Notes: generated by a model not told the origin, from the letters alone. DNA of 64,000 nt from an archaeon (GCA_030704845.1 JAUYKZ010000023.1:14262-78261); one strand, 5' to 3'. Positions 11,559 through 51,965 are shown, counted from the stretch's first letter. Numbers and translations: made by a program.

Positions 11559-11642
11559 TATAGATAAAGAACAGGTATTCCTTTATAATATTTTATGCTC
11601 TAGAGCTGATTTTCAAAAATTTAAAGATTTAATGAAATCGGT

Positions 11643-12440: not shown

Positions 12441-12477
12441 ACATCTAAAGAAAGAAGAATCTGCTTAAAAATCTGTT

Positions 12478-12618: not shown

Positions 12619-12996
12619 ATTCATTGATAAAGCAATTAAATAAATTAAGCAAAGCTTCTCTTCAACGAATCTCTAGCACATTGGAAAGCCGAGGTTAAAT
12701 ATCCGAAATCAGATGTTCGTTACACAAAAGCAGGATTTGAACCATTAACAGAGACCATAATCAGAAATGATAAAATCGGCATTATCATTTGGAGTGATAA
12801 ACCTCTTGGTATTATCATCCACCAAAAAGAAGCTGCTGAATCTTATGATCAATTTTTTAAAATAATGTGGAGTACTGCAATTCCTTAGATTATTCAAGTA
12901 ATATTGTTAAACTTTGTTTAGGATATATTAAACAATTCGTTTCTACTAAATTCAATTTCCGCTACTTTTTTAAACAATAACATAATCTAAGTATTT

Positions 12997-13635
12997 ATGG
13001 GTTGGTTTCATAAATTATCACATTTTCTTTGGAAGGATACTTCTATTTGGAGTTGGATTGCCAATATCTTAATTGCTTTCCTTGTAATTCGTTTTTTATT
13101 CTACCCAGTTCTAGGAGTTCTCCTTGGTACTAGTTTCCCTGTTGTAGCAGTAGTTAGTGAAAGTATGGAACACGGATTACATAACGATGTTCTTTGTGGA
13201 CAATCATTTGATACGTTTCATGAATCATTTGATAATTATTGGGGTATTTGCGGTTCATGGTATGAACAGATTGGAATAACAATGGAACAGTTTAAACAAT
13301 TTCCATTTAAGAATGGGTTCAATAAAGGCGATGTAATAGTTTTATGGAGAGCAAATAGAAATAATCTTGAGGTCGGCGATATTTTAGTTTTCCAAGCAAA
13401 TAAAAATCAACCGATTATCCACCGGATGGTTGCTGTTACTGAAAAAGATGGAAATCTCTTTTATCAGACGAAAGGCGATCATAACGCTAGAAGTATTGAA
13501 TCTGGGTTAGATGAGACGCATATTAGTGAAGATCGTGTTTATGGGCAAGCTTTATTTAGGATACCTTATCTTGGATGGGTTAAAATTTTAGTTGTAGAAC
13601 TTCTTAAACCGTTTGGGATAGTTATTGAGCGGTGA
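12997..13635 (+). CDS. signal peptidase I, archaeal/ER Sec11 type
   Basis: N-terminal TM segment, the SESMEH catalytic-serine box and a GDHN box. Confidence 0.65.
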   Translation: MGWFHKLSHFLWKDTSIWSWIANILIAFLVIRFLFYPVLGVLLGTSFPVVAVVSESMEHGLHNDVLCGQSFDTFHESFDNYWGICGSWYEQIGITMEQFKQFPFKNGFNKGDVIVLWRANRNNLEVGDILVFQANKNQPIIHRMVAVTEKDGNLFYQTKGDHNARSIESGLDETHISEDRVYGQALFRIPYLGWVKILVVELLKPFGIVIER

Positions 13636-13646
13636 TTTTGTTTCAT

Positions 13647-14000
13647 TTATTTCTGTTTCTCAAATGGTATTAATTTAGCTGAATATTTTTTTAAAAAGTA
13701 TTCTGCCCAAACTTCTCTATCAATGCCGATTTGATCTGCATGAATCCAATATCCATTTACATCTTCGGTAAACTGAGGATGTTGCGTGAGAGTGATAACC
13801 ACGGACCAGATTATTTTATCTTTATCATCTGGATTGAAAATACTTAATTGGTCTCCATCTACCAGAATATGTAGTCTTTCATACGACCATCTATCCTTAA
13901 AAAAAATATATTGAGAATCTTGAAAAGCCCAATATCCGCCTTCAGTACCGGTTTCAGAATGTAAATGCAATTTCCCTTCTAAAGAATTATCGTTGGTCAT
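13647..14000 (-). CDS. hypothetical protein
   Basis: ORF only. Confidence 0.3.
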   Translation of the reverse strand: MTNDNSLEGKLHLHSETGTEGGYWAFQDSQYIFFKDRWSYERLHILVDGDQLSIFNPDDKDKIIWSVVITLTQHPQFTEDVNGYWIHADQIGIDREVWAEYFLKKYSAKLIPFEKQK

Positions 14001-16110: not shown

Positions 16111-16860
16111 TTATTTTTTCTTCAAATTAATTCTATAAAATTCTCTTGCTTGTTCTTTAGATGATTCTAAACTTTTTCCTGCATTTAAATAGGTGACATT
16201 AACTCCCGCATTCTCAAATATTTTTCTGAATTCTTCACTTTCATAATGAGCTTTAATTCTTAATTGAAATTCTAAATTTTCAAATATACAATTGTCATCT
16301 TTTTCTCGTTCAGAAACTCTTCTTATAGCTTCTTCTGCATCTTTAATTGTTGGAACAATTAAAAAGTCCATTGGATGTTTCATGCAAAAAGTATTTCCTG
16401 GAATTGCTAAAATTTCTTCAACGCTAAATTCTTCTCCTCTATCTAAAGCACTTTGTCGTTGATAAACTATTGTTGTTGAAAGTGATCTGCTTTGAAAAAT
16501 GTTAATTCCATTTTCTAATGCCGGAAGAATTACTCCTTCATATAATATTCTTCTATCAAGGGCATATGCGTCTGCAACTGCTTGAGGGCTGTAATCTCTT
16601 CCATTTCTAGAAATTAATTCTTCTCTAATATATCTTCCAACCCCACTAAAAGTTGGCTCAGAAGTGATTACGATATCAAAATTACCAATAATCTCTTTAT
16701 GGTCTGGATGATGATTATTCTTCTCCCAGAATTCATGGACGTCAAATACTCTTTTTCCTTCCTTTTTTGCTTCTTGAATAAATTCGTTAAGAAAAACACC
16801 TTTGCCAACGCCATCTAATCCATCAATAACTACAAACTTGCCTCTTTCCATTCTATCCAC
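16111..16860 (-). CDS. tmk: thymidylate kinase-like dNMP kinase
   Basis: GKFVVIDGLDGVGKG P-loop in the dTMP kinase arrangement and a DRR segment. Sits next to folA and thyA. Confidence 0.5.
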   Translation of the reverse strand: MDRMERGKFVVIDGLDGVGKGVFLNEFIQEAKKEGKRVFDVHEFWEKNNHHPDHKEIIGNFDIVITSEPTFSGVGRYIREELISRNGRDYSPQAVADAYALDRRILYEGVILPALENGINIFQSRSLSTTIVYQRQSALDRGEEFSVEEILAIPGNTFCMKHPMDFLIVPTIKDAEEAIRRVSEREKDDNCIFENLEFQLRIKAHYESEEFRKIFENAGVNVTYLNAGKSLESSKEQAREFYRINLKKK

Positions 16861-16870
16861 CCTTTTTTTA

Positions 16871-17410
16871 TTATCTTCTAGTTTTAGTATAAGTCACAAA
16901 TGAATACTCTTTCTCGATAGGAATCCCATCTTTATTAAATTCTGTTTCTCCATAATCTACTGGTACCCCTTGCCATTCATGGTGATTAATCGGTGGGAAG
17001 AAAGCATCACCATCAGTTACAACTCTTTTAACATGAGTAATCTCTAATTTTGTTGCTAACGGCATTGTATCTCTATAAACAGTTTCTCCTCCAATGATGT
17101 ATACTAATGGCGGATTTTCTCCGATTAAAGGTGCTTTATCGGCTTCTGCAAGAGCTTCTTCAAGACTATGCGCGATGTAAATGCCATTATCTCTAAAATC
17201 TGGATTGCTTGTCATAACAATATTATGTCGGCCTTGTAATGGTCGAAATTTATTTGGAATTGATTCATAGGTATTTCGTCCCATGATTACTGGATGTCCT
17301 AAAGTTAATTCTTTAAATCGAGTTAAATCTTCAGGAATTCTCCACGGCATTTGACCATTTATTCCAATTACATTATTAATTGACACTGCTGCAATTAGTA
17401 CTAAGTCCAT
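16871..17410 (-). CDS. folA: dihydrofolate reductase
   Basis: MDLVLIAAVSINNVIGINGQMPWRIPEDLTRFKELTLGHPVIMGRNTYESIP aligns closely with the canonical DHFR N-terminus. Confidence 0.8.
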   Translation of the reverse strand: MDLVLIAAVSINNVIGINGQMPWRIPEDLTRFKELTLGHPVIMGRNTYESIPNKFRPLQGRHNIVMTSNPDFRDNGIYIAHSLEEALAEADKAPLIGENPPLVYIIGGETVYRDTMPLATKLEITHVKRVVTDGDAFFPPINHHEWQGVPVDYGETEFNKDGIPIEKEYSFVTYTKTRR

Positions 17411-17425
17411 TTTATTCCTCTAAAT

Positions 17426-18292
17426 CTATACCGCTATTTTAAAATCTATCTTTAGTTGTGGATTGTAACCAACAAGTTTTGAATCAGTAAATTCCCAATT
17501 AAATATTGAACTAAAACTTTCAGTATCTATCCTTGGTAGTTCCCCGGGTTTTCTACTTAATTGTTCCTTAGCACCTTCAAAATGATTTTCATAAATATGA
17601 ACATCAGCTAAGAATCCAGTTAAAATTCCTTCTTCTAATCCGGATTCCTTTGCTAAGAGATGAAGTAGTAATCCATAACTTGCAATATTGAATGGTAAGC
17701 CAAGCATTGTATCAACAGATCGTTGATTCCATAGAAGATTTACTTTACCTTCCGAGGTCGTAACTTGAAATCCATAATGACACGGGGGTAAGGCCATCTG
17801 AGATAATTGTGCTGGATTCCAGGAATTAACAATCATTCTCCTATCATTTGGATTATTTTTAAGTGTTTCAACTAAAGTTGCAAGTTGATCTATTCCTTGT
17901 CCAGAATAATCTGCATCTGGTCCTTTATATTCTGCACCAAAATGGCGCCATTGAAATCCATATATCGGTCCAAGATCATTCTCTTGCATCATTCTATTTT
18001 TTGATTCCTCGTCATGAGCATAAGGAACTTTTTTAGGATTACACCATTCATCCCAAATCTTATTTTTTCTCTCTTGTAACCATCTTTTATCGGTAAGACC
18101 TTTTATAAAAAATTCTAATTCGGATTTAACAAGTTGAAATGGAACTCTTTTTGTTGTAAGAATTGGAAAACCTTTCTTCATATCATGTTTAAAGATTCTA
18201 CCGGAAACTAAATAAGTGTCAATGCCCGTTCTATTTTCTTTTCTTTCACCAGTTTTTAGAATGTCTTTTACCAGATTTAAGTATTGTTCCAT
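17426..18292 (-). CDS. thyA: thymidylate synthase (ThyA type)
   Basis: MEQYLNLVKDIL start, an ALPPCHYGFQV active-site cysteine motif, and ThyA-like similarity throughout. The ORF in the track extends 16 codons further upstream. Confidence 0.8.
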   Translation of the reverse strand: MEQYLNLVKDILKTGERKENRTGIDTYLVSGRIFKHDMKKGFPILTTKRVPFQLVKSELEFFIKGLTDKRWLQERKNKIWDEWCNPKKVPYAHDEESKNRMMQENDLGPIYGFQWRHFGAEYKGPDADYSGQGIDQLATLVETLKNNPNDRRMIVNSWNPAQLSQMALPPCHYGFQVTTSEGKVNLLWNQRSVDTMLGLPFNIASYGLLLHLLAKESGLEEGILTGFLADVHIYENHFEGAKEQLSRKPGELPRIDTESFSSIFNWEFTDSKLVGYNPQLKIDFKIAV

Positions 18293-18377
18293 AAAATCCC
18301 CCCTTCTACAAAACGATAATATTCCATTCTTTAAATACATTTATCATCTCAATACTCACCTTTGAAAGACAATAATC

Positions 18378-18388
18378 CATTTAAATAA
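18378..18388 (+). promoter_or_regulatory. putative archaeal TATA box (catttaaataa) about 26 nt upstream of the ATG at 18409
   Basis: TATA-like element at the spacing expected for a leaderless archaeal transcript. The same spacing recurs at 31760 and 54611. Confidence 0.35.
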
Positions 18389-18408
18389 CTCCTCTCGGAA
18401 GTAGAAAC

Positions 18409-19434
18409 ATGATTATTGGTGTTATAGGTAAATATGCTTCGGGGAAGGATTGTGTAGCTAAAACTTTAGAGAATCAAGGATTTATTCATTATTCTTTATC
18501 AGATGAAATTAGAGCGGAAGCTAAGCAAAGGAAACTTAAAATTACAAGAGACGTTTTAATTAATCTTGGCAATGAACTAAGAGAAAAATTCGGTCCATCT
18601 ATTCTTTCTGAAAGAATTCGTTCAAGAATTCACGGGAACAGAAATTATGTTCTTTCTTCTATCAGAAATGTTGAAGAGGTAAATGCTTTACTAGATCTTC
18701 CAGAATTTGTTTTAATTAGAGTTGAAGCAGATGCAAAGAAAAGATTCGAATGGCTTAATAAAAGAGCTAGGGAAGAAGATCCTAAGACTTTCAAAGAATT
18801 CCAAGAGAAAGAGAAATTGGAATCTAGTTCTGATCCAAACAAACAACAGTTGCACAAAGTAATGAAACTTGCAAAAATAGTTATTAAAAATGAAGGAAGT
18901 TTGGAAGATTTAAATAATAAAACTTTACGTATGTTTAATAATCTTAAACGGAAATATCATAAACGGCCCAGTTGGGACGATTATTTCATGGGAATCGTTG
19001 AAGCAGTTTCTACTAGAGCAACATGTGACCGCGGGAGAACAGCGGTTGTTTTAGTTAAAGATAAAATAATAATTGCAACTGGTTATGTTGGTTCACCAAT
19101 GGGTATGCCACATTGTGATGATGTTGGTCATCAGATGAAGAAAATAATTCATGAAGATGAAAGAATTTCTCAACATTGTGTGAGAACAAATCATGGGGAA
19201 GTTAATGCTATTTCTCTTGCTGCAAGAAATGGTGTTTCAACGGAAGGAGCAACGTTATATTGTAAACTTGAACCTTGTTACACCTGCGCTAAGATGCTTA
19301 TTAATTCGGGGATTATAAGAGTTGTCTGTCAGAAATTATATCATGCAGGACAAGATTCGCGAGAATTGTTTAAGATGGCAAAAATCCCGGTGACCGTTCT
19401 TCAAGATACTGTTGAAGGATATTCTAATCAATGA
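18409..19434 (+). CDS. bifunctional P-loop nucleotide kinase-like domain fused to dCMP deaminase
   Basis: N-terminus has GVIGKYASGKD, a Walker A in a small NMP-kinase/dephospho-CoA-kinase-like fold. C-terminus has HGEVNAI and LEPCYTCAKMLINSGI, the zinc-binding motifs of deoxycytidylate deaminase. Confidence 0.6.
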   Translation: MIIGVIGKYASGKDCVAKTLENQGFIHYSLSDEIRAEAKQRKLKITRDVLINLGNELREKFGPSILSERIRSRIHGNRNYVLSSIRNVEEVNALLDLPEFVLIRVEADAKKRFEWLNKRAREEDPKTFKEFQEKEKLESSSDPNKQQLHKVMKLAKIVIKNEGSLEDLNNKTLRMFNNLKRKYHKRPSWDDYFMGIVEAVSTRATCDRGRTAVVLVKDKIIIATGYVGSPMGMPHCDDVGHQMKKIIHEDERISQHCVRTNHGEVNAISLAARNGVSTEGATLYCKLEPCYTCAKMLINSGIIRVVCQKLYHAGQDSRELFKMAKIPVTVLQDTVEGYSNQ

Positions 19435-23220: not shown

Positions 23221-23547
23221 TTATAATTTGCTTAAAACAGTATCTATCTTCTGTTTTAACATTGGTTTTGGAGAAAATCCTACAATTCTATCTGTTTCCT
23301 CGCCTTTATTGAAAATTATAAGGCAAGGTATTCCAGTAACCATCATGTTACCTGCAACTTGCGGATATTCTTCAGTTGAAATCTTTGCGAATTTTAATTT
23401 TCCTTCGTATTCTTTACTTACCTCTTCAAAGATTGGAGTAAGCATTTTACATGGACCACACCATGATGCCCAGAAATCTACGATAACTGGCAAATTTGAT
23501 TCAAGAACCTCTTTTTGAAAACTTTCCTCAGTTAATTCCATGACCAT
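23221..23547 (-). CDS. trxA: thioredoxin
   Basis: [17 protein letters not shown] active-site motif. 108 aa. Confidence 0.8.
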
Positions 23548-23667: not shown

Positions 23668-24801
23668 GTGATGGATGTGAAAATAAAGTATCTTGTACTT
23701 TTGGTCTTATTTTTATCACTTTTATCAACCTCTGCTTTGGCAGTTGAAAATGATTGTTTATACTACTTTTATGGAAAAAATTGTGTGGAATGTAATGATG
23801 CGGAAAAATATATCGATTCTTTAATAGTTAAATATCCTTCTTTAAATTTACAGAAATATGAAGTGTATCATAGCCCAAGTAATGAAAAATTACTTGATGA
23901 TTATTTCGAACATTTTTCTGTTGAGAAAAACTCTCGGGGAGTTCCCGTAGTTTTCATGCATGGAAGTTATCTAATTGGTAATGATTCAATCAGACAATAT
24001 TTGGATGGTTCCATCAGAGAAAACAATAATGTAGCTTGTCCTTCTTTAACAGACTCATTTGCTATTGGTTTAGTTGGATCAAAACAACCTTATCATGTTC
24101 TTGACACAATCTCATTTACTTTAATTGCCGGGTCTGCAATTCAAGATAGTACTTCAATGGCAATTCTTGCTGTTCTACTTATTTTCCTTCTTTTACTAAG
24201 CGTAGTTAAAGATAAACAGAAAAGTATTCAGTTGGGAGTTTTATTTGTAATGATGATTGTTGGATTAAATTTATTATTTGGGTTAGGTTTATTTAGAGAA
24301 TTTGCTTCTTCATCAATCTCAAGATATTTTGCTAAATTAATTGGTTTAATTGCCGTTTCTTTAGGTGCGGGCGGAATTTACGCTTTCTTCCAGCATAAAC
24401 CATCATTCATTAGCGAAGAATCTCGAGAACGGTTATTGAATAAATTAAGATTTTTTAGAACTCCCGGCGGAGTTGTTATCCTCGGATTTGTTACAGGTTT
24501 ATTTTCGTTAGGTTTGAGAAGTGAAGGTTTCATGACTTTGCAAAGTATTTCTATTAACAATGCAGCTGCATTAGCAGCTTTGCCCATGTTAATATTTTAT
24601 GCGATAATCTTTTCTGTTCCTTTTATTTTATTAATAGTTGCGATGTATAACATAAAAAAACATCTTGAACATAGAGCTAAGATTAAAGGAAAAGATTATG
24701 TAGATAAAGTTTTAATTTGGAACGAGCATCATCATCAAGTTCTTAATTTTGTTGTTAACGCAATCGTATTTGTGGTTGGTGTTGGATTATTAGTTGTTTA
24801 A
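23668..24801 (+). CDS. polytopic membrane protein with N-terminal thioredoxin-like CxxC domain (possible thiol-disulfide oxidoreductase)
   Basis: Signal peptide, then YFYGKNCVEC, followed by multiple hydrophobic helices. Confidence 0.35.
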   Translation: MMDVKIKYLVLLVLFLSLLSTSALAVENDCLYYFYGKNCVECNDAEKYIDSLIVKYPSLNLQKYEVYHSPSNEKLLDDYFEHFSVEKNSRGVPVVFMHGSYLIGNDSIRQYLDGSIRENNNVACPSLTDSFAIGLVGSKQPYHVLDTISFTLIAGSAIQDSTSMAILAVLLIFLLLLSVVKDKQKSIQLGVLFVMMIVGLNLLFGLGLFREFASSSISRYFAKLIGLIAVSLGAGGIYAFFQHKPSFISEESRERLLNKLRFFRTPGGVVILGFVTGLFSLGLRSEGFMTLQSISINNAAALAALPMLIFYAIIFSVPFILLIVAMYNIKKHLEHRAKIKGKDYVDKVLIWNEHHHQVLNFVVNAIVFVVGVGLLVV

Positions 24802-24802
24802 A

Positions 24803-25285
24803 TCAATTTAAATAATGGTCTTGTGAGTGTAAATCGGGTTTATTTTTTTCAGATATTGTTATGTTTACTTTTACTTTTGTTCCAGGTATTCTAGATCTTC
24901 TTAATGATAATACTTTTGTTTTAAACCTATATATTCCATCAACTTTCTCACCTTGATTTAATTCTAGAAATCCGCCATCAGAACATGCTGGTCGATTATC
25001 ATTACCAACTGAACAAAGGGAGTAAGATACAGATAAATCATCTGTTAGGTAAGAATCAGGGATTGTAAGATTAATTTTTCCTGCCACTTTGTAAACATCT
25101 CCATTTAAACGGCACATTTCTACATCTGAAGAGATATTTTCTAACCCTTCTTTATCTCCTTTAGTGGTTGTAATATCTTCGATACATTCGGTAGTTACAG
25201 CTACGGCTGGTTTAACGTCATCTGCGTTTGCATGGCAGGTATAAGTAGCTAGTAGGATTCCAATGGCAAGTTTTTTTGATATCAT
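24803..25285 (-). CDS. hypothetical secreted protein
   Basis: Signal peptide. Cys-containing. Confidence 0.3.
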   Translation of the reverse strand: MISKKLAIGILLATYTCHANADDVKPAVAVTTECIEDITTTKGDKEGLENISSDVEMCRLNGDVYKVAGKINLTIPDSYLTDDLSVSYSLCSVGNDNRPACSDGGFLELNQGEKVDGIYRFKTKVLSLRRSRIPGTKVKVNITISEKNKPDLHSQDHYLN

Positions 25286-25379
25286 TTTTCTTTCAATTCT
25301 CCATTATGCAAAAATTGCCAGAAAACCATTGACTTTAGTCAATGATGGTTGGCACATTTTTCTAGCTATTTTGCATCCT

Positions 25380-25455
25380 AAAAATGCGTAATTTAAATAC
25401 CGTCTTTTTCAAACCTTACCTTCAAGGCAAGGTAAGACGGTTTAACGCATTTTTA
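25380..25455. repeat. intergenic nested palindrome with arms taaaaatgcgtaa / ttaacgcattttta
   Basis: Read directly. Inner stems are taccgtctt/aagacggt and ccttacc/ggtaagg. Confidence 0.5.
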
Positions 25456-25492
25456 TGATTTTTTTAAATTCTTCTGTGATTTTTGTTCAATT

Positions 25493-26911
25493 CTAATCTT
25501 TATCGCAGATGCCTTCATACTCATTAAACATCCTGGTTACATCTTCTCTAGTAAATTTTCTGGGGTCAGGATTTATTTGATATCTAAAACTATTAACTAT
25601 GTTATCTACACAATTTCTATCAAAATATCCCAGATTTAAAGATCTCATCATAATTTCAAATTGTTTTTGCATACCTTCTTTAGATTGGTATTGATCAATG
25701 GTTTCTAAATATTTTTCCATTTCAGAAAAGGTTGTAATTCCACGTACTGCAAAATTTTTTACAATCTGATAGGGGTTTGGATAATTACTAATCCTATCAA
25801 TAAATGCTATTGGAAGTTCAATCCCAATGTTTAAAAGATCATTCATTCCTTTTAAATTTGATTTCCCAGATTTCTCTAAAAACTCTTTAAGGCATTCTTT
25901 CTCATTATTACATTGAGCAACATAGGTGCAATCACTTGATTCTAAGTGTCTTGATATTGAATATAATTTTAACGATTCTGGATTGATATTTCCATCTTCT
26001 TTCTTTTCAAAATCAAAATCTAACAATTTTCTATCACAAGAATAAACTTTTCTCCCGGGAAGGGAATAAGCAGCAACATTTGCTAAGTTTAATTCTCTGT
26101 CTCGACCTTCTCCGGCATTACAACTTGCAAATAAAACTATGGCGTCTTTATCAAATAATTTCTCGTAAGGTGAAAGAATTCTTATTAATTGATCCCAATG
26201 GATTATGATTTCATCTTCTCTTGTTTTTCCTTCAAAAGTTATTTCTTGTATATCTGTTATCAAAGAATATCTGCTACCGTGAGCTCCAAAAACAAGTCCA
26301 GCAACTTTTCCTTTCATTTTTCCTTTAACTATTGCTTCTCCATTTCTAAACAGTTCATTTATCGAAAATTCTATCATGGCTTTTCTTAATTCTTCTTTAC
26401 CACTAACCTCGTAAAGTACAACTCTATATCTATCTAAAAGGTCTTTAATTTTATCGGTTTTTTCTTCTAAAGGATGAATCCTAAATGGTAGACTGTGGTC
26501 ATATTTGCCCATGATAAACAATATCGTTGGTTTCTCAAGATCTTCTAATGGTCGTTTATTTAATGCTTCTAACACCTTCATAGAATATCTTTGGGGGTTA
26601 ATTATGAAATGGTTTGAATATAGGTTGCTTGTTAGTTTATCATATGCTCTAAACTCTTCCAAGTCCATGTTTTCGATAATTTCTTCTAGTTCTTCTCTTA
26701 CTTCTGAACTATATTCTTTGTCATAATTAGCTTGTTCTTCGATTTTTGTTTGGTAAAAGTTTAATAAATCATTTTTTGACAATTCAAGAACTCGAGTTTC
26801 ATATCTTTCTGCACTATTAAGATGTTGCACTGGAGCAGCGCATCCACTAAGAACTGTTGCGGCAGAAAGTACTAGGTTGCAGAGAGTTTGTTTAAGATTC
26901 ATTTTAATCAT
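25493..26911 (-). CDS. hypothetical lipoprotein (472 aa)
   Basis: Signal with LSGC lipobox. No domain recognised. Confidence 0.35.
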   Translation of the reverse strand: MIKMNLKQTLCNLVLSAATVLSGCAAPVQHLNSAERYETRVLELSKNDLLNFYQTKIEEQANYDKEYSSEVREELEEIIENMDLEEFRAYDKLTSNLYSNHFIINPQRYSMKVLEALNKRPLEDLEKPTILFIMGKYDHSLPFRIHPLEEKTDKIKDLLDRYRVVLYEVSGKEELRKAMIEFSINELFRNGEAIVKGKMKGKVAGLVFGAHGSRYSLITDIQEITFEGKTREDEIIIHWDQLIRILSPYEKLFDKDAIVLFASCNAGEGRDRELNLANVAAYSLPGRKVYSCDRKLLDFDFEKKEDGNINPESLKLYSISRHLESSDCTYVAQCNNEKECLKEFLEKSGKSNLKGMNDLLNIGIELPIAFIDRISNYPNPYQIVKNFAVRGITTFSEMEKYLETIDQYQSKEGMQKQFEIMMRSLNLGYFDRNCVDNIVNSFRYQINPDPRKFTREDVTRMFNEYEGICDKD

Positions 26912-27992
26912 CTACCTCATATTCTCGGCCATTTATTTCTTCAATTAATCTTACCGCTCTTTCAACATTGTTTTTCCGATCTGCATCTTTATATCCCCTA
27001 AATGAATCAACAAAGTTCTTTAGAGAGACTTCAGCTTGAAGATCAAAGTATAAACTTCTCTTATTGTTCTTTTCAATAAAATCAAAAAATTCTTGAGCCA
27101 TCTCTGGGTTCTCTACTCCAGTTCTAGCTAAATATCTAATGGTGTGTATTCCCTCATTATCAAATTCACGGATAATTTCGTAGGTCTCAGAATCATTCTT
27201 GGAAGAACTTAATCCTTCCATAATCATTTCAAAATTCTCTTTCAGATCTGAGTGAGAATCAGTTTCCATTAAATCTTTTAGTTCATCAAGAGCATCTCTT
27301 GCTAAAGCTACCTCTTTTTTAAGATCATCGTCGGTCTTAAGATATTCATGAATTGTTTTAGAGATTTCATAGGCAAAGAATTTGCTGGTTTTTTCTATAC
27401 ATTCCTCAGCTCTTCTCCAGTTTCCTGAATTAAGACCAATTGCTTCCATGTAATTTGGATCAGAGGATTTTTTTCTTGATTCCCCTACTACTTTTAGAAA
27501 ATCATATAATTTCTGTTTTCTGCGTGGATTACAAATGGATTCGTGAATAAAGCTGTTATTATATCCACTAGATTCAAAGAATTTATCAATTCCATCTTGC
27601 GTGGCTATTGGCGTTTCTTCATTATCGATATCAATTATGATTGGTAGTTGTTCTTTTCCAAACAAACCATATCTGTTCAAACAAACAATTTTAAAATCAG
27701 GCAATTCATCCAGACAAGCTTCTACTTCATCCTCAAGATCTTCGAAGGTTTTTGGTTTTTCTTCTTCCAGCTCTGGAATAATTCCTAATGGGTATAACTT
27801 TCTGGCTTTCTCCATGTTCCTTCGCAGATTCTCATTAATAAAAGGTTTTTTTGGGGTGGTACTACTTTCATAAACAATTTCTGGAGCAGGTTCATAGTTA
27901 TTAGCTGGTCTTGTTGGTGGTCTGTAAAGTCCTAAGGCTAAGAAAGCTGCTGCGCCTAGTCCAAGGATTCCAGTAGCTGTACGTTTATTCAT
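26904..27992 (-). CDS. hypothetical membrane-anchored/secreted protein
   Basis: N-terminal hydrophobic segment. Overlaps the downstream lipoprotein gene by 8 nt, suggesting an operon. Confidence 0.35.
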   Translation of the reverse strand: MNKRTATGILGLGAAAFLALGLYRPPTRPANNYEPAPEIVYESSTTPKKPFINENLRRNMEKARKLYPLGIIPELEEEKPKTFEDLEDEVEACLDELPDFKIVCLNRYGLFGKEQLPIIIDIDNEETPIATQDGIDKFFESSGYNNSFIHESICNPRRKQKLYDFLKVVGESRKKSSDPNYMEAIGLNSGNWRRAEECIEKTSKFFAYEISKTIHEYLKTDDDLKKEVALARDALDELKDLMETDSHSDLKENFEMIMEGLSSSKNDSETYEIIREFDNEGIHTIRYLARTGVENPEMAQEFFDFIEKNNKRSLYFDLQAEVSLKNFVDSFRGYKDADRKNNVERAVRLIEEINGREYEVDD

Positions 27993-41212: not shown

Positions 41213-41266
41213 AACTTAAAATTAAGATAATCACTTTATAAAAGTTTCTTAGATGTTTTAGAAAAA

Positions 41267-41337
41267 GCCCTCGGCGAGAATTGAACTCGCGACCTTGTCC
41301 TTACCAAGGACACGCTCTACCACTGAGCCACGAGGGC
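41267..41337 (-). tRNA. tRNA-Thr (GGU)
   Basis: Minus strand reads gccctcgtggctcagtggtagagcgtgtccttggtaaggacaaggtcgcgagttcaattctcgccgagggc. Cloverleaf with anticodon loop ttGGTaa. No encoded CCA. Confidence 0.8.
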
Positions 41338-41462: not shown

Positions 41463-41534
41463 TAGGATGCCAAAAATGTCTTCCTAAATGGTTGTATTTT
41501 AAACACAGCGACATTTTTGTGCATAAAAAAGAGT

Positions 41535-41668
41535 GTCGGGGAAGGGATTCGAACCCTCGAACCCACTAAGAGACAGGATATCTTCCAAGGAAGCCAATTA
41601 TCAATAATTGGTGCCTCATCCATGTGGACTTAAGTCCTGCGCATTTGACCGGACTTTGCTACCCCGAC
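41535..41668 (-). tRNA. tRNA-Leu (UAA) with intron of about 49 nt at position 37/38
   Basis: Minus strand reads gtcggggtagcaaag...gcaggacttaag[intron tccacatggatgaggcaccaattattgataattggcttccttggaagat]atcctg-long variable arm-gagggttcgaatcccttccccgac. The acceptor and T arm are canonical. After intron removal the anticodon stem is cagga/tcctg with loop cTTAAga. The intron carries its own ccaattat/ataattgg hairpin. Confidence 0.55.
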
Positions 41669-43991: not shown

Positions 43992-44552
43992 TTAATCTTT
44001 AGAATTATAATACTTATATATCGGTTGTTGTTCTTTCACATTAACTTCTTTATTGGCATCTCTAGCTAGCACATACAACAAATCACTTAACCGATTGATA
44101 TATTTTAACAATTCTGGATTAAATGAAATCACGGAAGAAACTTTAACTAAAGATCTCTCTGCTCTACGTGTGATAACTCTGCATAGATGTAAGAAAGCAC
44201 TTTGTTTTGTTCCGCCAGGAATAACAAATTTTGTTGGCATCCCAAGTTTTTCATGTAACACATCAATTGTTTGTTCTAATTCTTCAACATGTTCCTTTGA
44301 TATTCTTGGAACAGTTTCATCTTCCAATAAACTTCCGCCAAGATCGGCACCAACTTGGAACAAATCATTCTGAATTTTTGTTAATGTTTCCCTTAATTTT
44401 TCTTCTTCAATGTAGCATAAAGTTAAACCAATGACAGAATTTAATTCATCTAAGGCCCCGAATGCTTCAATTCTTGGATCATCTTTAGGGATTAGTCCGC
44501 AACCAAAAAACATCGTAAGTCCACCATCCCCAGTTTTGGTATATATGCTCAT
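43992..44552 (-). CDS. ATP:cob(I)alamin adenosyltransferase, PduO type
   Basis: MSIYTKTGDGGLTMFFG...KDDPRIEAFGALDELNSVIGL matches the PduO/MMAB N-terminal consensus. Confidence 0.7.
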   Translation of the reverse strand: MSIYTKTGDGGLTMFFGCGLIPKDDPRIEAFGALDELNSVIGLTLCYIEEEKLRETLTKIQNDLFQVGADLGGSLLEDETVPRISKEHVEELEQTIDVLHEKLGMPTKFVIPGGTKQSAFLHLCRVITRRAERSLVKVSSVISFNPELLKYINRLSDLLYVLARDANKEVNVKEQQPIYKYYNSKD

Positions 44553-44553
44553 C

Positions 44554-46617
44554 CTACATCCCGTCGCCGATTGTAATCACTTGGTCTTCATAACTTCCAT
44601 CCCGGTAAATGGTTAACCCTTTACATTTCATCTTCCAGGCTAGCATGTAAGCATCTTCGACATCTTTAATTGCAGCCGTTCTAGGAAAATTAACCGTCTT
44701 TGAAATTGAATTGTCAACATGTTTCTGTAATGTTGCTTGCATTTTGATGTGCCATTCAGGTTTTATATCTTGAGCTGTGACAAAAACATCTCTTACATCT
44801 TTAGGAACTTCTTTGATATGTTGTACTCCACCCATTAAAGACAATTTTCTCATTAGTTCTGGGGAATAAAATCCTCTATCTTTTGCAACTTTTTCAAAGA
44901 CTGAATTGACTGTAATTAATTCATTACTGCTTAGCACAGTTCTTTGAAATGCTAAAGCAAATGCAGGTTCACAACCAGAAGTTGTATTTGCAAGAATACT
45001 TCTGGTACCTGTTGGCGATAAAGATATGCAACTCATATTTCTCATTTTTCTTCCTGCTTTTTCGTGATCTGAACCTTCCCAAGCTGGGCAAACACCTCTT
45101 TCTTCAGCAAGTTGAGAAGATTTCTCATAAACAGCATCTTTAAAGAACGACATCAATTTTTCAGCGATTGCTAATCCTTCTTCTGAATCATATTTAATAC
45201 CTAGCATGAATAACATGTCGGCAAATCCCATGATTCCAAGTCCAAACTTACGCGTTTTTTTGGTTTGTTCTTCAATTTTAGCTTTCGGATAACTATTCAT
45301 GTCAATCACATTGTCAAGAAAATGAACTGATATCTGGATAACTTCTCTTAATTTTTCCCAATCTAAATCTTTCCCAATAACAAATTTTGCAACGTCAATA
45401 CTACCCAAAGCACATCCTTCATTAGGTAATAATGGTGCTTCGCCACATTGATTTGTTGTTTCAATTTCTCCGAGATGTCTAGCAGGATGTTTTCGGTTAA
45501 TTTCATCGATAAAAATTAATCCTGGATCACCAGTTTTCCAAGCATTTTGAGTAATAACCGCGAAAACGTCTTTCGCTCTTAACTTCCCAACATATTTACT
45601 AGTGCGTGGATTTTTTAAGAAATATTCTCGATCTTCTTCAACTGATTTCATAAATCGGTCAGTTACAGCAACTGAAATGTTAAAATTCTTTAATGACCTT
45701 TTATCTCTTTTTGAATCAATGAATCTTAATATGTCTGGATGGTCAACTCTTAGCACAGCCATGTTTGCTCCAGGTCTTACTCCTCCTTGTTTGATAACGT
45801 CAAGAGCCGCATCATAAACTTTCAAAAATGCTAACGGACCGGAGGCAACCCCTAGATGGTGTTGTACCGGATCACCTTTAGATCTTAATCTAGAAAAAGC
45901 AAATCCAGTTCCGCTTCCTCGTTGATGAATGATTGCCGCATCACGAAGAGTTCCAAAAATTGAACGCATGTTATCTTCAATTGGAAGAACGAAACATGCA
46001 CTTAACTGCTGACTGTTTGTTCCAGCATTCATTAATGTTGGCGAGTTAGGTAAAAAATAAAGTTTGGAAAGAATCATATAAAATTGTTGTGATATTTCTG
46101 CAATCTGTTCTGAATTTTTCCGGTAATACTTATCCGCTTTTGCAATATTATTAGCAACTCTTTGGAGCATGCCTTCTGGATTTTCTTTAAGATTTCCAAG
46201 TTGATCTTTCATTAAATATCTTCTATCTAATATTTTTAATGCTTCATTGGTAAATGAATGATCTTCTTCACCGACATGTTGTTCGCCTAGAATTAATGCT
46301 CTTCTTGCTCTGGTTTCACTTCTGGTATGCCGATGTAGAATGTATGCTTTTGCAGTCTTAGCATGTCCCCTATCAATTAATGTTTTTTCAACTAGGTCTT
46401 GTACGTTCTCAACAGTCGGTTTAGAAAGTTGAAATTTTTCACCAATAATCCTTTCGATATCCCTCGCTAAAGCAAGGGCCAATACTTTATCATCACCACC
46501 TACTGCTTGAGCTGCTTTGAAGATTGCATCAGCAATTTTGTTTACGTTAAACGAGACAATTCTTCCATCACGTTTAGTTATTTCTTTTATTTGGAAACTT
46601 TTGTTATCTTCTGTCAT
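44554..46617 (-). CDS. ribonucleotide reductase catalytic subunit (class II-like) with N-terminal ATP-cone
   Basis: ATP-cone (IKEITKRDGRIVSFNVNKIADAI). It has LPNSPTLMNAGT, SACFVLPIEDN radical-Cys and NQCGEAPL motifs. No beta subunit gene is nearby, and an adenosyltransferase sits adjacent. Confidence 0.75.
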   Translation of the reverse strand: MTEDNKSFQIKEITKRDGRIVSFNVNKIADAIFKAAQAVGGDDKVLALALARDIERIIGEKFQLSKPTVENVQDLVEKTLIDRGHAKTAKAYILHRHTRSETRARRALILGEQHVGEEDHSFTNEALKILDRRYLMKDQLGNLKENPEGMLQRVANNIAKADKYYRKNSEQIAEISQQFYMILSKLYFLPNSPTLMNAGTNSQQLSACFVLPIEDNMRSIFGTLRDAAIIHQRGSGTGFAFSRLRSKGDPVQHHLGVASGPLAFLKVYDAALDVIKQGGVRPGANMAVLRVDHPDILRFIDSKRDKRSLKNFNISVAVTDRFMKSVEEDREYFLKNPRTSKYVGKLRAKDVFAVITQNAWKTGDPGLIFIDEINRKHPARHLGEIETTNQCGEAPLLPNEGCALGSIDVAKFVIGKDLDWEKLREVIQISVHFLDNVIDMNSYPKAKIEEQTKKTRKFGLGIMGFADMLFMLGIKYDSEEGLAIAEKLMSFFKDAVYEKSSQLAEERGVCPAWEGSDHEKAGRKMRNMSCISLSPTGTRSILANTTSGCEPAFALAFQRTVLSSNELITVNSVFEKVAKDRGFYSPELMRKLSLMGGVQHIKEVPKDVRDVFVTAQDIKPEWHIKMQATLQKHVDNSISKTVNFPRTAAIKDVEDAYMLAWKMKCKGLTIYRDGSYEDQVITIGDGM

Positions 46618-46622
46618 CAGAT

Positions 46623-49600
46623 TTAACTACACCCAGTTGTTTCTCCGCAAACTTCACATAACATGCATGTGCCATTTTGTCTTAATTGAGTTGCTCCGCA
46701 ACCACTACATTTCATGGTTGTATTTTTTGTTGAAACTATTCTGCTTGAGATTTCTTTTTTTACAGGTTCATTCGTTGATTTGATCTTAATACCCATGTCT
46801 TCAAAGTCACAAAGGAACTCTTGAAGTTCTGAGATTACAGGATGTCCCGGTACATTTAAACTTTCCCTTGCAATCTTAACTGGATCGGCTCCTTCTCTTA
46901 GACTGAAATTAACTCCATTAACAATGGTTTGCATCATTACTTGTTGTATTGGTGAGACCCAATCCATTGAGATTTCAATTCCCCCAATTATATTATTTTT
47001 AACTTCAGCAGTAAATATACATTTTTTACCAGCAAGTTTTACAACTTTTTTGTAATATGTTATTGGCGAAACTTCCAAAGGAGTTACAGTTTCTTCCGTT
47101 GATTTAGAGGTAAGTATATTCTTAAGCTGAGAGTTTTCTCCTAAAATCGAATTTAATGGTTGGCTTAATTTGCTTCCATCTCGGTAAAGAGCAACAGCTT
47201 TAATCATCAATTTCCAGGAATCATAGTATGCTTTTTTTATCTGTTCAACGGTCCATTCTTGAGGCATGTTAATTGTCTTAGAGATTGCACCAGAAACAAA
47301 TGGTTGAGTTGCCGCAAGCATATTTAGATGTCCATAAGGGTGGATATATCTTTTTCCGCCTTTACCACATTTATTAGCACAATCAAAGACTGGTAGATGT
47401 TCTTCTTTAAGATGCGGAGCACCTTCTAACATCATTGTTCCACAGATGTGTTTATTTGCTGCATCAATTTCTGTTTCTGTAAATCCAAGGGCAGTAAGGA
47501 AATTTCCTTGTTTTCCATTCATGATTCTATTATAGAAATCTTCTCCTAATGTCCATTGATTAAAGACATAACTAATATCCATGGAGTTTCCTAATTCTTT
47601 CTCTACTTTCATGATTTGCTGTTCACTAAATCCCTTAGCAGTTAAAGAATCAAGGTTAATGTAAGGGCTTCCATCAAGACTACCATTGCCAAGACAATAT
47701 TGAATAATATCTCTTGTTTGTCCTTCAGTATATCCTAATTTACGTAACGATTTTGGAACTGATTGATTAACAATCTTGAAATATCCACCACCAGCTAGTT
47801 TCTTGAATTTAACTAATGCATAATCCGGTTCAACACCGGTAGTATCACAATCCATAACTAAACCAATTGTTCCAGTTGGGGCGAGAACGGTTGTTTGTGC
47901 ATTTCTATATCCGTGATTTTCTCCTAACCGTAGAGCCTTATCCCAAGCGTTATGAGCGGCTTCTAGCAGTTCTTTAGGACAGAGAATTTGATCAAGCGCT
48001 AGTGGTTTGATTGTTAGATCTTCATAATCTTCTTCGGAGGCATTATAAGAAGCTCTTCGATGATTTCTGATTACCTTTAACATGTGTTCTTTGTTATCTT
48101 CATATCTCTCAAATGGTGCAAGGGCCGATGCTAACTCTGCTGAAGTAGCATAAGCATCACCAGTCATGATTGCTGTTAAGGCACCAGAAATTGTTCTTCC
48201 TTTATCACTATCATATGGAATTCCTTGTAACATTAACAATGAACCAACGTTAGCAAATCCTAACCCTAAAGTTCTGTATTCAAAACTTCTCATTGCAATT
48301 TGTTCAGATGGGAAATGGGCCATTAATACAGATAACTCTAATGCGATAGTCCATAATCTGATTGCATGTCGATATCCTTTAATATCAAAAATTCCAGTTT
48401 TATCTTCATAGAACTTTACTAAATTAATTGATGCAAGATTACAAGCAGTATCATCTAAAAAATTATATTCTGCGCAAGGATTACTTCCGTTAATTCTTCC
48501 TCCTTCAGGGCAAGTATGCCATTCATTGATGGTTGAATCATATTGTATTCCTGGATCGGCACTAGCCCATGCACAATAACCAATTTGATCCCACAATTCA
48601 TGTGCGGGGATAGTTTTCATTACACTCCCGTCAGTTCTTGCTTTTAATTCCCATGCTTCTCCATTTTCTAATGCTTCAAAGAATGAATTTGGAATTCTTA
48701 CAGAATTATTACTGTTCTGTCCAGATACTGTAACGTAAGCTTCAGATTCATAATGGGTATCGAATTCTTGAAGTGGTAAAGAATATCCTTGTTTTGCTAA
48801 TTCTAAAGCTCTAATAACATAATTTACCGGAATTTCGTCGTGTGAAGCAGCTTTGATTGCATTCTGTACTCCTAAATCATTTAATGGGTTTTCTTTACCT
48901 TGAGAAAGTTCGATAAGTTTGCCTAATCGTTTTTTTAGAATTTTACTTCCTGCAACCAAATCTGCAACTTTTTCTTCTTCTTTAACTTTCCACCAGATTA
49001 AACTTTCAATTTCGGGATGATCTAAATCTAATGAAATCATTTTGGCAGCTCTTCTAGTAGTTCCGCCAGACTTTATACTTCCGGCAGCGACATCAAATAT
49101 TTTAAGGAAACTCATTAACCCGCTACTTGTTCCTCCACCCGAAAGACGTTCACCTTTTCCACGTAATGCTGAGAAGTTACTTCCGGTCCCGCTACCATAT
49201 TTGAATATTCTTGCTTCTCTGATAAGTAAACTTAGAATTCCGCCATCACGAACTAAATCGTCATTTAATGCTTGAATAAAACAATTGTGTACAACAACCC
49301 CATTCCCCAAAAATTTTCCACTTTCTGTTTGAATGTCATATACATTCTTAATACCAATGCTTTCTATTGACATGATTTGTTCTTCTCTGATAAGTGGAAG
49401 ACATTTTGAACGTTGGACTAGTTTGTTGAGTAGTAGCAATTTATCATGTTTCTCCTCACTAATGAAACCAATTTGTTCGGAATATTGTTCACGAGCACTT
49501 CCATAAGCAATAATCACTTGATTTGTTCCTGCACGATTTTCTCGGCTATCAATATTCTTAGATATTCTTGCATAAATCCCAACAGAATTAAGCAATTGTA

Positions 49601-50987
49601 GCACGCCAAATGATAAATCATCTGAACTGGTCGTTAAGCAGATATCTCCCGAGTGTCTACTTTCATCTACTCTTATTCTAACACACCCATCGGCTTGGAA
49701 AAGGGTTTTAAGGAACTCTCGTTTTTCTTGAGGCGAGGAGTATACTATTTTCTTTGGAACTCGAGCTGTTCTACTTCTACTTTCTAGCAGTTCATATTCC
49801 TCAACAAAAGGATGTATCTTTTTCCCAGCTAGATGAACTCTTTTTCCATTTATATTATCACTTTTGGTATCAAATGTTGTAATCCAATAACTCACATCAT
49901 TACCAAAAACTTCCTTAATATCTTCTATTACTGATTCATGTTCGGAATCATTAATGGTTATTATCTCCATTCTCATTACGTTAGAATAAATTCCAACTGA
50001 GCCATCTCCGACAACCCATCCAGCTAATCTTGCTTTAGCTAAATCTCTACTGAAAACATTTTTTTCTTTAACATCAAGCATTAATGGTTGCTGAAGCCTA
50101 TGTCTTACTTTAACATCCTTAAGTTCCTTCCAAGTGTATTCACCATGCCATTTCTCTGCTGAGAGTACTACATGATCATTAGTTAAATCAATATAATTGC
50201 CATTTTTAAGAAGGACTCTAAATACTTCTTTTCTACCATTATCCTTAGTCGCTAGAATTTTTACAAAATCTTCTCCATCAAATACTTTAATTCCAGCTAA
50301 ATTATTTTCAACAATATCTCCAATATACATTGTGCCTTTTTCAGTATACAATTGTGTGTAATATTCTGCACACGCATGCGGTTGTGATCTAGAATATGCA
50401 TCTTTTGAGAATTCTAATCTCTTTGTGATTGGATCAACATAACTATGTCCTTGAGCAGGTCCAGTAATTCCATATGCCCAATGAAGACCAGTTGTAAACC
50501 ATTGCGGGCTGTTAGGAGCAGCAGATTGATTAATTATCATGTAAATCATTTCATCATAGAATGTTTGTGCATCATCTTCTGTTGCAAAATAATTAAATTT
50601 CTTCCCCCAATTCATCCAACATCCAGCAATTCTGTGAGCAACTTGTTTAATGCTGGTTTCACTGCCAGAAATAACTTTTCCATTTTCATCAAGAAGTAAT
50701 TCTCCATTCTCGTCACGTAAAGGCACTCCCGCTTTCCGGAAATATTTCTGAGCGAGAATATCGGTAGCTACTTGTGACCAGAAATCAGGGACTTCTACGT
50801 CATTCATTTCAAAAACAGTACTTCCATCTGGATTTTTAATAATAGAGGTTCTTCGTTCATAATTGAACATTTCTGCTGGTGGTGTATCTTCTTTAGTATA
50901 ATATCTTGGAATCTTTAATCCTTCTTGTTCAAGCATAATTTCCTCTTCTTCTTCACCCAGATTTGTTTTATTTTTCATTATAGCCAC
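46623..50987 (-). CDS. ribonucleotide reductase (class II-like, about 1085 aa extein) containing one LAGLIDADG intein; C-terminal zinc ribbon
   Basis: Extein motifs are CFIQALNDD radical-Cys, NPCAEYNFL...CNLASINL, and a terminal CSGCG...[13 protein letters not shown]. The intein spans residues 206-568 (about 363 aa). It begins CAEYY, ends VVHN followed by C, and has [11 protein letters not shown] and LFQADGCV endonuclease blocks. Confidence 0.8.
49284..50372 (-). other. intein with LAGLIDADG homing endonuclease inside the RNR gene
   Basis: The Cys1 ... His-Asn/Cys+1 splice junctions sit exactly at the RNR active-site cysteine codon (host context SQPHA|CFIQ). Coordinates were derived by residue counting. 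Confidence 0.7.
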
Positions 50988-51266
50988 CTCTTATGATTAG
51001 TTTGATTTTTTCTTGGAGTTGTTTAAGTCTATCAATTTGTTTATGTATACTTGCTTGTCATAAAATTGATATTCATTAGTTCATCATGTGAACAGAATGG
51101 ATAGTACATTAAAATCCCCCTTTTAACGTTAATATGACGAAAAATCCTGTTTAAATAGTTTTTAGTAATCTAATATGTGGTTTAAAGAAGTAGTTTCTGA
51201 TATCTTAGAGATGATAAGAAGTTATTAGAATTAGAGACATCTTTTTAGATGTTAAGATTTAATCAG

Positions 51267-51413
51267 AACTATTCGGCGCTGTCCAGAAAGTCATAAAAAT
51301 GTATACTGGGGCACGGCGCTCATTACGAGCTTCACTTCGTTTGCTCGTGCGCCTCGACTACGTCAGGGCGCCAGTATACAAAAAAGAGACTTTCTGGACA
51401 GCGCCAACTATTC
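51267..51413. mobile_element. second MITE-like element: 18-bp perfect TIRs, 8-bp flanking direct repeats, GC-rich core
   Basis: The flanks both read aactattc (51267-51274 and 51406-51413). The TIRs are ggcgctgtccagaaagtc (51275-51292) and gactttctggacagcgcc (51388-51405). The interior is GC-rich with nested stems. Confidence 0.5.
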
Positions 51414-51449
51414 GTTAACCTTTTAAATCATTTAATCTTTCTTACCATA

Positions 51450-51965
51450 ATGGTTACTTCAATCATCATTAAAAGCCTTTATTTTTTCTTACCGGTATAT
51501 TTTGCTAATATGGCTCCGGTATTATTCAAATGGTTACCTTTTAAGAAACCAATAAGTAAAAAAATGTTTGGTAAAAACAAAACGTGGAGAGGATTGATTG
51601 TGGCTATATTAGTTGGTGGAATTGTTTTCTGGGCACAGAAACTTCTTTTTAATGCTGGTTTTGTTTCCCTAGCTTTCATTGATTATCATGATTTCCCCAT
51701 ATACTATGGTTTTCTGTTAGGAATTGGAGCAATTTTAGGTGATCTTGTCAAGAGTTACTATAAACGTAAAGTAGGAATAAAACCGGGCGATTCTTGGTTA
51801 TTTTTTGATCAAGAAGATTTCGTGATTGGAGCATTTTTATTCTCATTATTTTATTATGTTCCGCCTATAGAAATTGTTTTTACATTATTCCTGGTAAGTC
51901 CATTTTTACATATGGCAGCAAATTATACCGGTCATCTTCTTGGAATTCGTGAAAAACCGTTATAA
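51450..51965 (+). CDS. carS: CDP-archaeol synthase (CarS, DUF46 family)
   Basis: About 170 aa and multi-TM. The GDLVKSYYKRKVGIKPGDSWLFFDQED region resembles the CarS cytoplasmic loop motif. Confidence 0.55.
   Translation: MVTSIIIKSLYFFLPVYFANMAPVLFKWLPFKKPISKKMFGKNKTWRGLIVAILVGGIVFWAQKLLFNAGFVSLAFIDYHDFPIYYGFLLGIGAILGDLVKSYYKRKVGIKPGDSWLFFDQEDFVIGAFLFSLFYYVPPIEIVFTLFLVSPFLHMAANYTGHLLGIREKPL

Follow-up and report, generated by a model that had tools for sequence, protein, structure and literature searches.

In ribonucleotide reductases (RNRs), the finger loop bears the thiyl radical and the reducing cysteines lie on strands β-A and β-F; conservation of the β-F cysteine has been described for both class I and class II enzymes (PMC9669993). 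Class II enzymes of the NrdJ type can carry a cysteine-rich zinc-finger domain, which is an extension of 150-220 residues with six conserved cysteines at its end (Loderer et al. 2017; PMC5704485). Tail-less NrdJd is known only from genomes with a second, tailed NrdJd gene (PMC5704485). Among the closest described systems are the genomes with two NrdJd genes (Frankia and some Alphaproteobacteria) and the NrdJa plus NrdJb pair of Pseudomonas aeruginosa, in which a tail-less catalytic protein is accompanied by a separately encoded Cys-rich tail (PMC5704485). A similar division is found in a 64,000-nucleotide stretch of archaeal DNA (GCA_030704845.1, JAUYKZ010000023.1:14262-78261; hereafter the window), where two nrdJ genes, one of them interrupted by an intein, stand beside a gene for a PduO-type adenosyltransferase. 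Here, in contrast to the two-NrdJd genomes and to NrdJa plus NrdJb, the pair consists of different NrdJ lineages adjacent in one operon, and the tail-less protein holds the only ATP-cone. The tail, moreover, is part of a complete second reductase, unlike the small NrdJb.

Taken in aggregate, the data make it reasonably likely that this locus is a self-contained adenosylcobalamin (AdoCbl)-dependent operon for deoxyribonucleoside triphosphate (dNTP) synthesis, in the order nrdJ-long, nrdJ-short, pduO, in a DPANN (Woesearchaeota/Nanoarchaeia-like) archaeon, with two reductases that may be functionally coupled. In an open reading frame (ORF) scan, a co-directional trio on the minus strand fills positions 43992..50987, with 5 nt between the two nrdJ genes and 1 nt between the short nrdJ and pduO. 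GC content and GC at third codon positions (GC3) are uniform over the whole operon, and the values for the intein are those of the extein. The window is archaeal in content (CDP-archaeol synthase, diphthamide synthase, CDC48, an intron-containing tRNA) and has 33% GC. All three genes are ordinary members of known families and had been annotated in GenBank before, as the consecutive entries MDP3990611, MDP3990610 and MDP3990609 of an "archaeon" metagenome-assembled genome: two adenosylcobalamin-dependent reductases and an adenosyltransferase. For the long gene, the GTG that opens the ORF is a less likely start than an ATG at 50978, which follows GAGGTG and gives 1451 residues. An independent gene call also returns 1451 residues, and the GenBank protein MDP3990611.1 starts at a later Met.

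Both reductases are assigned to class II NrdJ, with predicted AdoCbl dependence. The long ORF matches Ribonuc_red_2_N (PF08471), the RNR barrel PF02867 (E 9e-117), LAGLIDADG_3 and Intein_splicing in Pfam; the short ORF matches the ATP-cone, the all-alpha domain and the barrel PF02867 (E 7e-132). Against the NrdJ equivalog TIGR02504 in NCBIfam (cut-off 399.95), the long ORF scores 538.8 bits and the short ORF 670.3 bits. The long ORF also exceeds the cut-off of PRK06556; it falls below that of PRK07562 because of the intein insertion. The barrel of both enzymes ends in a single-Tyr xYRDGS, the class I YY radical-transfer pair is seen in neither, and the glycyl-radical motif RVxGY is absent from both and from every window ORF of at least 200 residues. 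No NrdB (PF00268), NrdD or NrdG was found among the window ORFs scanned, and the ORFs of NrdB or NrdD size proved to be other things. A preliminary description of this stretch had called both enzymes class II-like and had named a glycyl-radical motif or an NrdB partner as what would change that assignment. With neither present in the window scans, its assignment stands for these 64 kb. Its account of the layout, a 687-residue ATP-cone RNR directly after an intein-split RNR, is likewise borne out.

Support for AdoCbl use comes from the third gene. Its product matches Cob_adeno_trans (PF01923) at 180.8 bits (Pfam; cut-off 24, E 3e-53) and, over its full length, PduO_Nterm (TIGR00636) at 184.6 bits (NCBIfam; cut-off 108.45), confirming the PduO-type corrinoid adenosyltransferase proposed earlier. 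An N-terminal TKTGDGGLT fits the N-terminus of the family. Unlike members in a diol or ethanolamine utilisation cluster, the window protein is a stand-alone polypeptide linked to nrdJ. Cob(I)alamin is the substrate adenylated by PduO-type enzymes, and the protein would adenosylate salvaged cobalamin for both reductases. Consistent with predicted AdoCbl use, an adenosyltransferase gene follows the short nrdJ in each related locus that reads past it. These very small archaea would in this way keep a complete module of B12 activation and reduction for DNA precursors. For a cobalamin riboswitch or other known RNA upstream of the operon, Rfam gave no match at gathering thresholds in a scan of the whole window, and none at E<=1 in 50900..51500.

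The three active-site cysteines were located through alignments to the Thermotoga maritima enzyme (Tm) and between the two paralogues, together with textbook E. coli numbering, in which we take C225 to be the β-A redox cysteine. In the short enzyme, SAC, NQCGE and EGC align with Tm C134, Tm C322 and Tm C333, respectively, giving C208 (β-A), N389-Q-C391-G-E393 (finger loop) and C402 (β-F). In the paralogue alignment, HA/CFIQ of the long enzyme (the slash marks the splice junction) falls on SACFV of the short enzyme, and SNPCAEY...TACNLAS falls on TNQCGE...EGCALGS. The thiyl-radical cysteine of the finger loop is that of SNPCAEY in the long enzyme and of TNQCGE in the short enzyme, both aligned with Tm C322. 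In the long enzyme it is uninterrupted, 270 residues downstream of the insertion site, and the β-A/β-F redox pair is C206/C486 (extein numbering).

These alignments set the junction opposite Tm C134 and SACFV, so that the intein lies just before the β-A redox cysteine and not at the radical cysteine. The preliminary description gave the host context SQPHA/CFIQ and its counterpart SACFV correctly, and took the interrupted codon for that of the radical cysteine, which is in fact intact at SNPCAEY. Its version, with a thiyl-radical codon split by the intein and a second NrdJ newly acquired or duplicated, can be given almost no credence: the alignments refute a radical-Cys site, inteins at that site (SNP/C[AS]EY) occur in other family members and not in this gene, the NrdJ pair is kept throughout the clade, and operon GC and GC3 are uniform. 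The one feature that speaks for it, the resemblance of the intein start CAEYY to the finger-loop SNPCAEY, is a possible source of the misreading. This likeness was taken as coincidence; inteins at the finger-loop site begin CVTGDT and belong to a different family.

The long enzyme is of the bacterial type, without an ATP-cone and with all catalytic residues (β-A Cys, finger-loop N-x-C-x-E, β-F Cys). The three active-site cysteines are kept in 95/95 long-family sequences, among which the finger-loop Cys motif is invariant. After the barrel, the protein continues into an extension that closes with the array C-x2-C-x10-C-x2-C-x2-C-x5-C, present in 119 of 120 homologues. In length and cysteine content, this extension matches the pattern of the cysteine-rich zinc-finger domain, and zinc binding is predicted. 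The nearest described counterpart is NrdJd (Stackebrandtia nassauensis, PMC5704485; NrdJ 7B9P/7B9Q), with which the long extein aligns end to end (1144 bits). Like NrdJd, it combines a PF08471 N-terminus, three active-site cysteines and a six-Cys C-terminal array with the lack of an ATP-cone. Unlike NrdJd, it belongs to a DPANN archaeon and has an intein in its gene. The long NrdJ would be self-sufficient.

The short enzyme, in contrast, is of the archaeal/Thermotoga type; it has an ATP-cone, and its radical site is intact. Its best solved relative is T. maritima NrdJ (1XJE; 394 bits), which has the same β-A, finger-loop and β-F cysteines, and an ATP-cone is shared with Thermoplasma acidophilum NrdJ (PMC9669993). 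Full-length T. maritima NrdJ bears a cysteine-rich tail (PMC5704485), whereas the short NrdJ stops at the barrel end. Its C-terminus lies 12 residues past YRDGS and has no cysteine, an ending found in all 121 sequences of its clade (close homologues, P0121-P0240; 63-92% identity, Woesearchaeota/Nanoarchaeia). Among relatives that share no more than 56% identity, which come from bacteria and other archaea, nearly all end in a CxxC or six-Cys tail; they are unpaired, without PduO beside them. These statements about tails derive from the homologue protein sets, the locus-level pattern measurement being unreliable for many loci. The comparison indicates that the short NrdJ has lost the C-terminal cysteine tail borne by its unpaired relatives.

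Loss of the tail is accompanied by relaxation at one of the redox cysteines. The clade keeps NQCGE in 121/121 sequences and the β-A Cys in 119/121, and at the β-F position (C402) it has Cys in 85/121, with Ile in 31 (P0143, P0179 and P0192 among them) and Ile, Ser, Val or Ala together in 36/121. The β-F losses are several and independent, and no column of the short-clade alignment co-varies with them. In about 100 tail-bearing relatives this position is always Cys, and tolerance of its loss further separates the clade from T. maritima NrdJ. An extra, near-invariant cysteine in G-C-E-P (C549) is found in the short clade, where the tail-bearing relatives have Ile. The finger-loop NQCGE, the β-A Cys, the phosphate loop PTGT and YRDGS are 98-100% conserved; since only 25% of columns reach 98% conservation, the invariance of the radical site is informative, and the short NrdJ is probably catalytic. 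That the clade tolerates loss of the β-F Cys suggests that its enzymes depend on the tail of the partner, or on a reductant that is not a thiol.

The pairing itself is conserved across loci drawn from species-representative genomes and metagenome contigs, to which three further loci were added starting from the long gene. A cone-less, Cys-tailed NrdJ precedes a cone-bearing, tail-less NrdJ in 15/15 tandem-clade loci with upstream DNA. The same order is found in 3/3 loci chosen via the long gene (L162, L163, L164), making 18/18 overall, in Woesearchaeota/Nanoarchaeia. This order holds even though the first gene of three loci (L006, L085, L091) is a different NrdJ of 670 residues with the tail CPDCEAPLTISEGCYTCVQCGSSACSI. 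At least 31 long/short homologue pairs have longest contigs of equal size, a measure that is only a proxy for co-location and that agrees with synteny. PduO follows the short gene in 17/17 tandem-clade loci and in L162, and its position cannot be scored in L164, which breaks off inside the short gene.

Individual loci show some variation on this plan. The 670-residue NrdJ (7883..9895 in L006; also in L085 and L091) has no ATP-cone, ends in a 74-residue six-Cys tail, has NrdR before it and is 40% identical to the short enzyme. In L163, a CobA/CobO/BtuR-type adenosyltransferase (PF02572; 11307..11930) stands in place of PduO, a non-orthologous replacement that keeps the function. In L164, a 1498-residue ORF with no Pfam match on record (9266..13762) lies between the long and short nrdJ, the locus being otherwise syntenic with the window.

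Over barrel segments, the long and short paralogues are 23-33% identical, and the divergence of both reductase genes is similar across the clade. These comparisons identify the two reductases as old, distant lineages with complementary accessory modules. The preliminary description had offered sub-functionalisation or recent acquisition to explain the pair. Recent acquisition is unsupported, because the pair is conserved in order across the Woesearchaeota/Nanoarchaeia clade, with both genes similarly diverged; recent horizontal arrival of the second RNR was rejected on the same clade-wide synteny and on the uniform GC/GC3. Sub-functionalisation is plausible, but too weak a term for old lineages at this level of identity with complementary modules. 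In the literature searched, no description of a clade-wide pairing of tailed, cone-less enzymes with tail-less, cone-bearing ones in which the β-F cysteine is dispensable was found for these archaea.

How the two enzymes may work together can be considered from the known role of the tail. The C-terminal cysteines of class II enzymes re-reduce the β-A/β-F disulfide. Within tetramers, an active site can be reduced by a tail that belongs to a different subunit, and the reductant TCEP acts solely by way of the tail (PMC5704485). For turnover, the short, ATP-cone-regulated NrdJ would draw on the Cys-rich tail of its neighbour within mixed oligomers, or would use a reductant other than a thiol. That the two reductases are functionally coupled and not merely redundant we infer as a near-balanced proposition, leaning slightly to the negative. 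A more specific model is rather unlikely: the tail-less and tailed NrdJ would form a two-protein (heteromeric or electron-sharing) class II RNR, one protein giving the reductive tail and the other ATP/dATP control, and the roughly 30% of the short clade without the β-F Cys would point to a reduction route not described for class I or II. If so, the route without β-F would take its thiols from the tail of the partner, or would use a small reductant in the manner of class III.

Several observations weigh against coupling. The case for the coupling step is indirect, a truncated enzyme was not rescued by the isolated tail domain (PMC5704485), and mixed oligomers are not a given at only 23-33% identity between the reductases. 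In L004, L016, L162 and L164 the two reductases stand apart, with a further gene or 0.3-4.5 kb between them, and the thioredoxin gene of the window could serve the short NrdJ directly. The loss of the β-F Cys in 30% of the short clade itself runs against universal re-reduction of a β-A/β-F disulfide. With 64 kb of the genome seen, RNRs of other classes may lie elsewhere. Some of these points fit with independent isozymes co-expressed with PduO, one unregulated and one ATP/dATP-regulated, in which the short NrdJ is re-reduced by a thioredoxin-like protein or small thiol with no link to the long NrdJ. Complete radical sites in both window copies, the distance between the lineages, a thioredoxin gene within the window, intervening genes at some loci and the function of truncated NrdJ enzymes with dithiothreitol in vitro (PMC5704485) are all consistent with this explanation, which we hold as a tentative possibility. 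It leaves unexplained why tail loss is confined to a clade that always has a tailed neighbour, why the complementarity of cone and tail survives a partner swap, and why the β-F Cys is dispensable.

Dispensability of the β-F Cys would be accommodated if the short clade had dropped disulfide chemistry and, like class III enzymes, worked through a single cysteine with formate or some other small reductant, making both tail and β-F Cys needless. Replacement of the β-F Cys in 36/121 members by several independent losses, with the β-A Cys (119/121) and NQCGE (121/121) retained and a tail in 0/121, is in keeping with class III RNRs, which conserve only the β-A Cys and use formate (PMC9669993). However, the β-F Cys is still present in the window copy and in 70% of the clade, the Met-Gly-Cys finger-loop motif of class III is absent, and the use of formate would not explain why the gene keeps so strictly beside a tailed partner; biochemical precedent in class II was not found in the literature searched. 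Such a mechanism is improbable. It is very doubtful, too, that the short NrdJ has no catalysis of its own and serves purely for regulation, carrying an ATP-cone through which the long enzyme is modulated. NQCGE, the β-A Cys, PTGT and YRDGS are conserved at 98-100% against 25% of background columns, and the protein scores above the NrdJ equivalog cut-off, even though it bears the operon's only ATP-cone, has a relaxed β-F Cys constraint and no tail, and lies in a genome that has apparently lost nrdR, which might give regulation of the protein itself more weight. The interest of the cassette lies in the pairing: cone-less tailed and cone-bearing tail-less enzymes kept together through partner swaps, the latter tolerant of β-F Cys loss, are a natural experiment, which bears on whether class II RNRs can share reducing tails or regulation between polypeptides.

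The element within the long gene is, as first described, a LAGLIDADG intein of exactly 363 residues. The residues expected for splicing are present: C1, T64-N-D-H67 (the TxxH of block B), H362-N363 and the +1 Cys of CFIQ. Together with both LAGLIDADG aspartates, D123 and D228, they are invariant in 10 family members (the window intein and nine homologues). Removal of the intein yields an extein of 1091 residues (1088 from the ATG), which aligns without a gap over the junction to the solved NrdJ 7B9P/7B9Q and, also across the junction, to about 95 intein-free homologues of 1040-1130 residues. An intein profile search, suggested in the preliminary description, supported the endonuclease half: PF14528 (LAGLIDADG_3) scored 50.7 bits, above its cut-off of 22.5. 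Two points tell against the assignment, in that PF14890 (Intein_splicing) reached 29.5, under its cut-off of 35.8, and some segments of the structural model are of low confidence.

In that model (AlphaFold2; predicted local distance difference test, pLDDT, 70), the whole length is matched by Foldseek to the TliVMA intein, PI-PfuI and PI-SceI (E 1e-16 to 1e-11), and the central domain matches I-DmoI with a template modelling (TM) score of about 0.7. By sequence, matches to solved structures are weak (best E 6e-5). Like PI-PfuI (1DQ3), the TliVMA intein (7QSU) and PI-SceI, the window intein joins a Hint domain to a two-motif LAGLIDADG endonuclease; it differs in being smaller and shares only 13-17% identity over the Foldseek alignments. 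The host gene of PI-PfuI is the Pyrococcus furiosus RNR, and an intein at an RNR catalytic cysteine is a classic pattern.

In intein splicing, the +1 cysteine takes part in the reaction, so that here the host's own β-A redox cysteine is the splice nucleophile. The intein would excise itself after translation through C1, TxxH, HN and the β-A Cys as the +1 nucleophile, and the spliced long NrdJ alone would be active. LAGLIDADG enzymes home into alleles without an intein. The endonuclease would cut intein-free alleles, such as the L003 or L162 gene, around the junction of CAACCGCATGCG and TGTTTTATTCAAGC, and the element would then be copied in.

The pattern of divergence suggests that this capacity is retained. 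In comparison with the L002 intein, the endonuclease domain has a non-synonymous divergence (pN) of 0.10, the same as the splicing domains, against a synonymous divergence (pS) of 0.82-0.89, which is saturated (0.89 in the endonuclease domain). Identities range over 72-84% for the intein and 67-84% for the extein, so that conservation of the intein equals or exceeds that of its essential host. The earlier suggestion that the homing endonuclease could be active is plausible on these values and on the intact catalytic aspartates, and the intein is probably a long resident, maintained and still homing. A degenerate or mini-intein was rejected, since purifying selection acts on the element and neither endonuclease motif nor any splicing block is damaged. 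A recent arrival of the intein by horizontal transfer was likewise rejected, its GC and GC3 being equal to those of the host gene.

The distribution of the intein is sporadic, since among the 120 best long-NrdJ homologues 94 are without any intein and 13 have one at the β-A site (including the GenBank copy of the window gene). In an exhaustive HMMER search across 1.8 billion cluster representatives (50% identity), related inteins, 30-42% identical, came up at [SH]A/CF in dozens of RNRs of several NrdJ lineages. Closest to the window intein are uncharacterised RNR inteins from metagenomes that occupy this same site. By this comparison, it belongs to an RNR intein allele that is widespread. Unrelated inteins occur elsewhere in the long-NrdJ family, at the radical Cys (SNP/C[AS]EY) and at APTG/T, and some genes hold two (about 1800 residues). 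Homologues with inteins at these further sites include P0012, P0023, P0043, P0070, P0077, P0088, P0101, P0106 and P0110, among others.

Features of the operon and its surroundings, in window coordinates.
Feature	Coordinates	Strand	Description
Long nrdJ (class II RNR)	46623..50987	-	1454 codons from GTG; intein-bearing, without ATP-cone
N-extein	50373..50978	-	class II N-terminal domain PF08471 to ...SQPHA
Intein	49284..50372	-	363 aa, long ORF residues 206-568; CAEYY...VVVHN, then CFIQ
LAGLIDADG motif 1	49998..50027	-	LAGWVVGD123GS; Asp123 invariant in family
LAGLIDADG motif 2	49683..49712	-	LFQAD228GC; Asp228 invariant in family
C-extein	46623..49283	-	CFIQ (β-A), SNPCAEY, DTACNLAS (β-F), APTGT; stop codon included
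Long NrdJ C-terminal extension	46626..47141	-	~170 aa after barrel; six-Cys array at end, 46626..46709
Short nrdJ	44554..46617	-	687 aa; ATP-cone, all-alpha domain and barrel; GenBank MDP3990610.1
Short NrdJ ATP-cone	46318..46584	-	aa 12-100; sole ATP-cone in operon
PduO-type ATP:cob(I)alamin adenosyltransferase	43992..44552	-	186 aa; GenBank MDP3990609.1
nrdR remnant	51041..51109	-	short ORF MYYPFCSHDELMNINFMTSKYT, then stop; first ten codons MYYPFCSHDE vs L002 MYCPFCSHEE
Palindromic element	51275..51405		131 nt, GC-rich
dNTP-metabolism genes	16111..19434		thymidylate kinase, dihydrofolate reductase (DHFR), thymidylate synthase ThyA, kinase-dCMP deaminase fusion
Thioredoxin gene	23221..23547		~4 kb past dNTP-metabolism genes
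tRNA match	41534..41668	-	135 nt
Normal tRNA	41266..41337		adjoins the tRNA match

Upstream of the long gene, syntenic relatives have a full NrdR-like gene, coding for a zinc ribbon and an ATP-cone, with carS on its other side. At this position the window has the short ORF listed above, apparently a stub that remained when nrdR was deleted from this genome. Beside the remnant, also between carS and the long nrdJ, lies the palindromic element, which has perfect 18-bp terminal inverted repeats (GGCGCTGTCCAGAAAGTC) and a direct repeat GAATAGTT on its flanks. It is present in a single copy in the window, has no Rfam match and folds as RNA at -74.7 kcal/mol (z = -8.2). It looks like an insertion of the miniature inverted-repeat transposable element (MITE) type.

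Further from the operon, the dNTP-metabolism genes and the thioredoxin gene both lie at a distance of 20-28 kb. Three ORFs in 23668..27992 (377, 472 and 362 residues) have no Pfam match at E<=0.001. The longer of the two adjoining tRNA matches fits an intron-containing archaeal tRNA.

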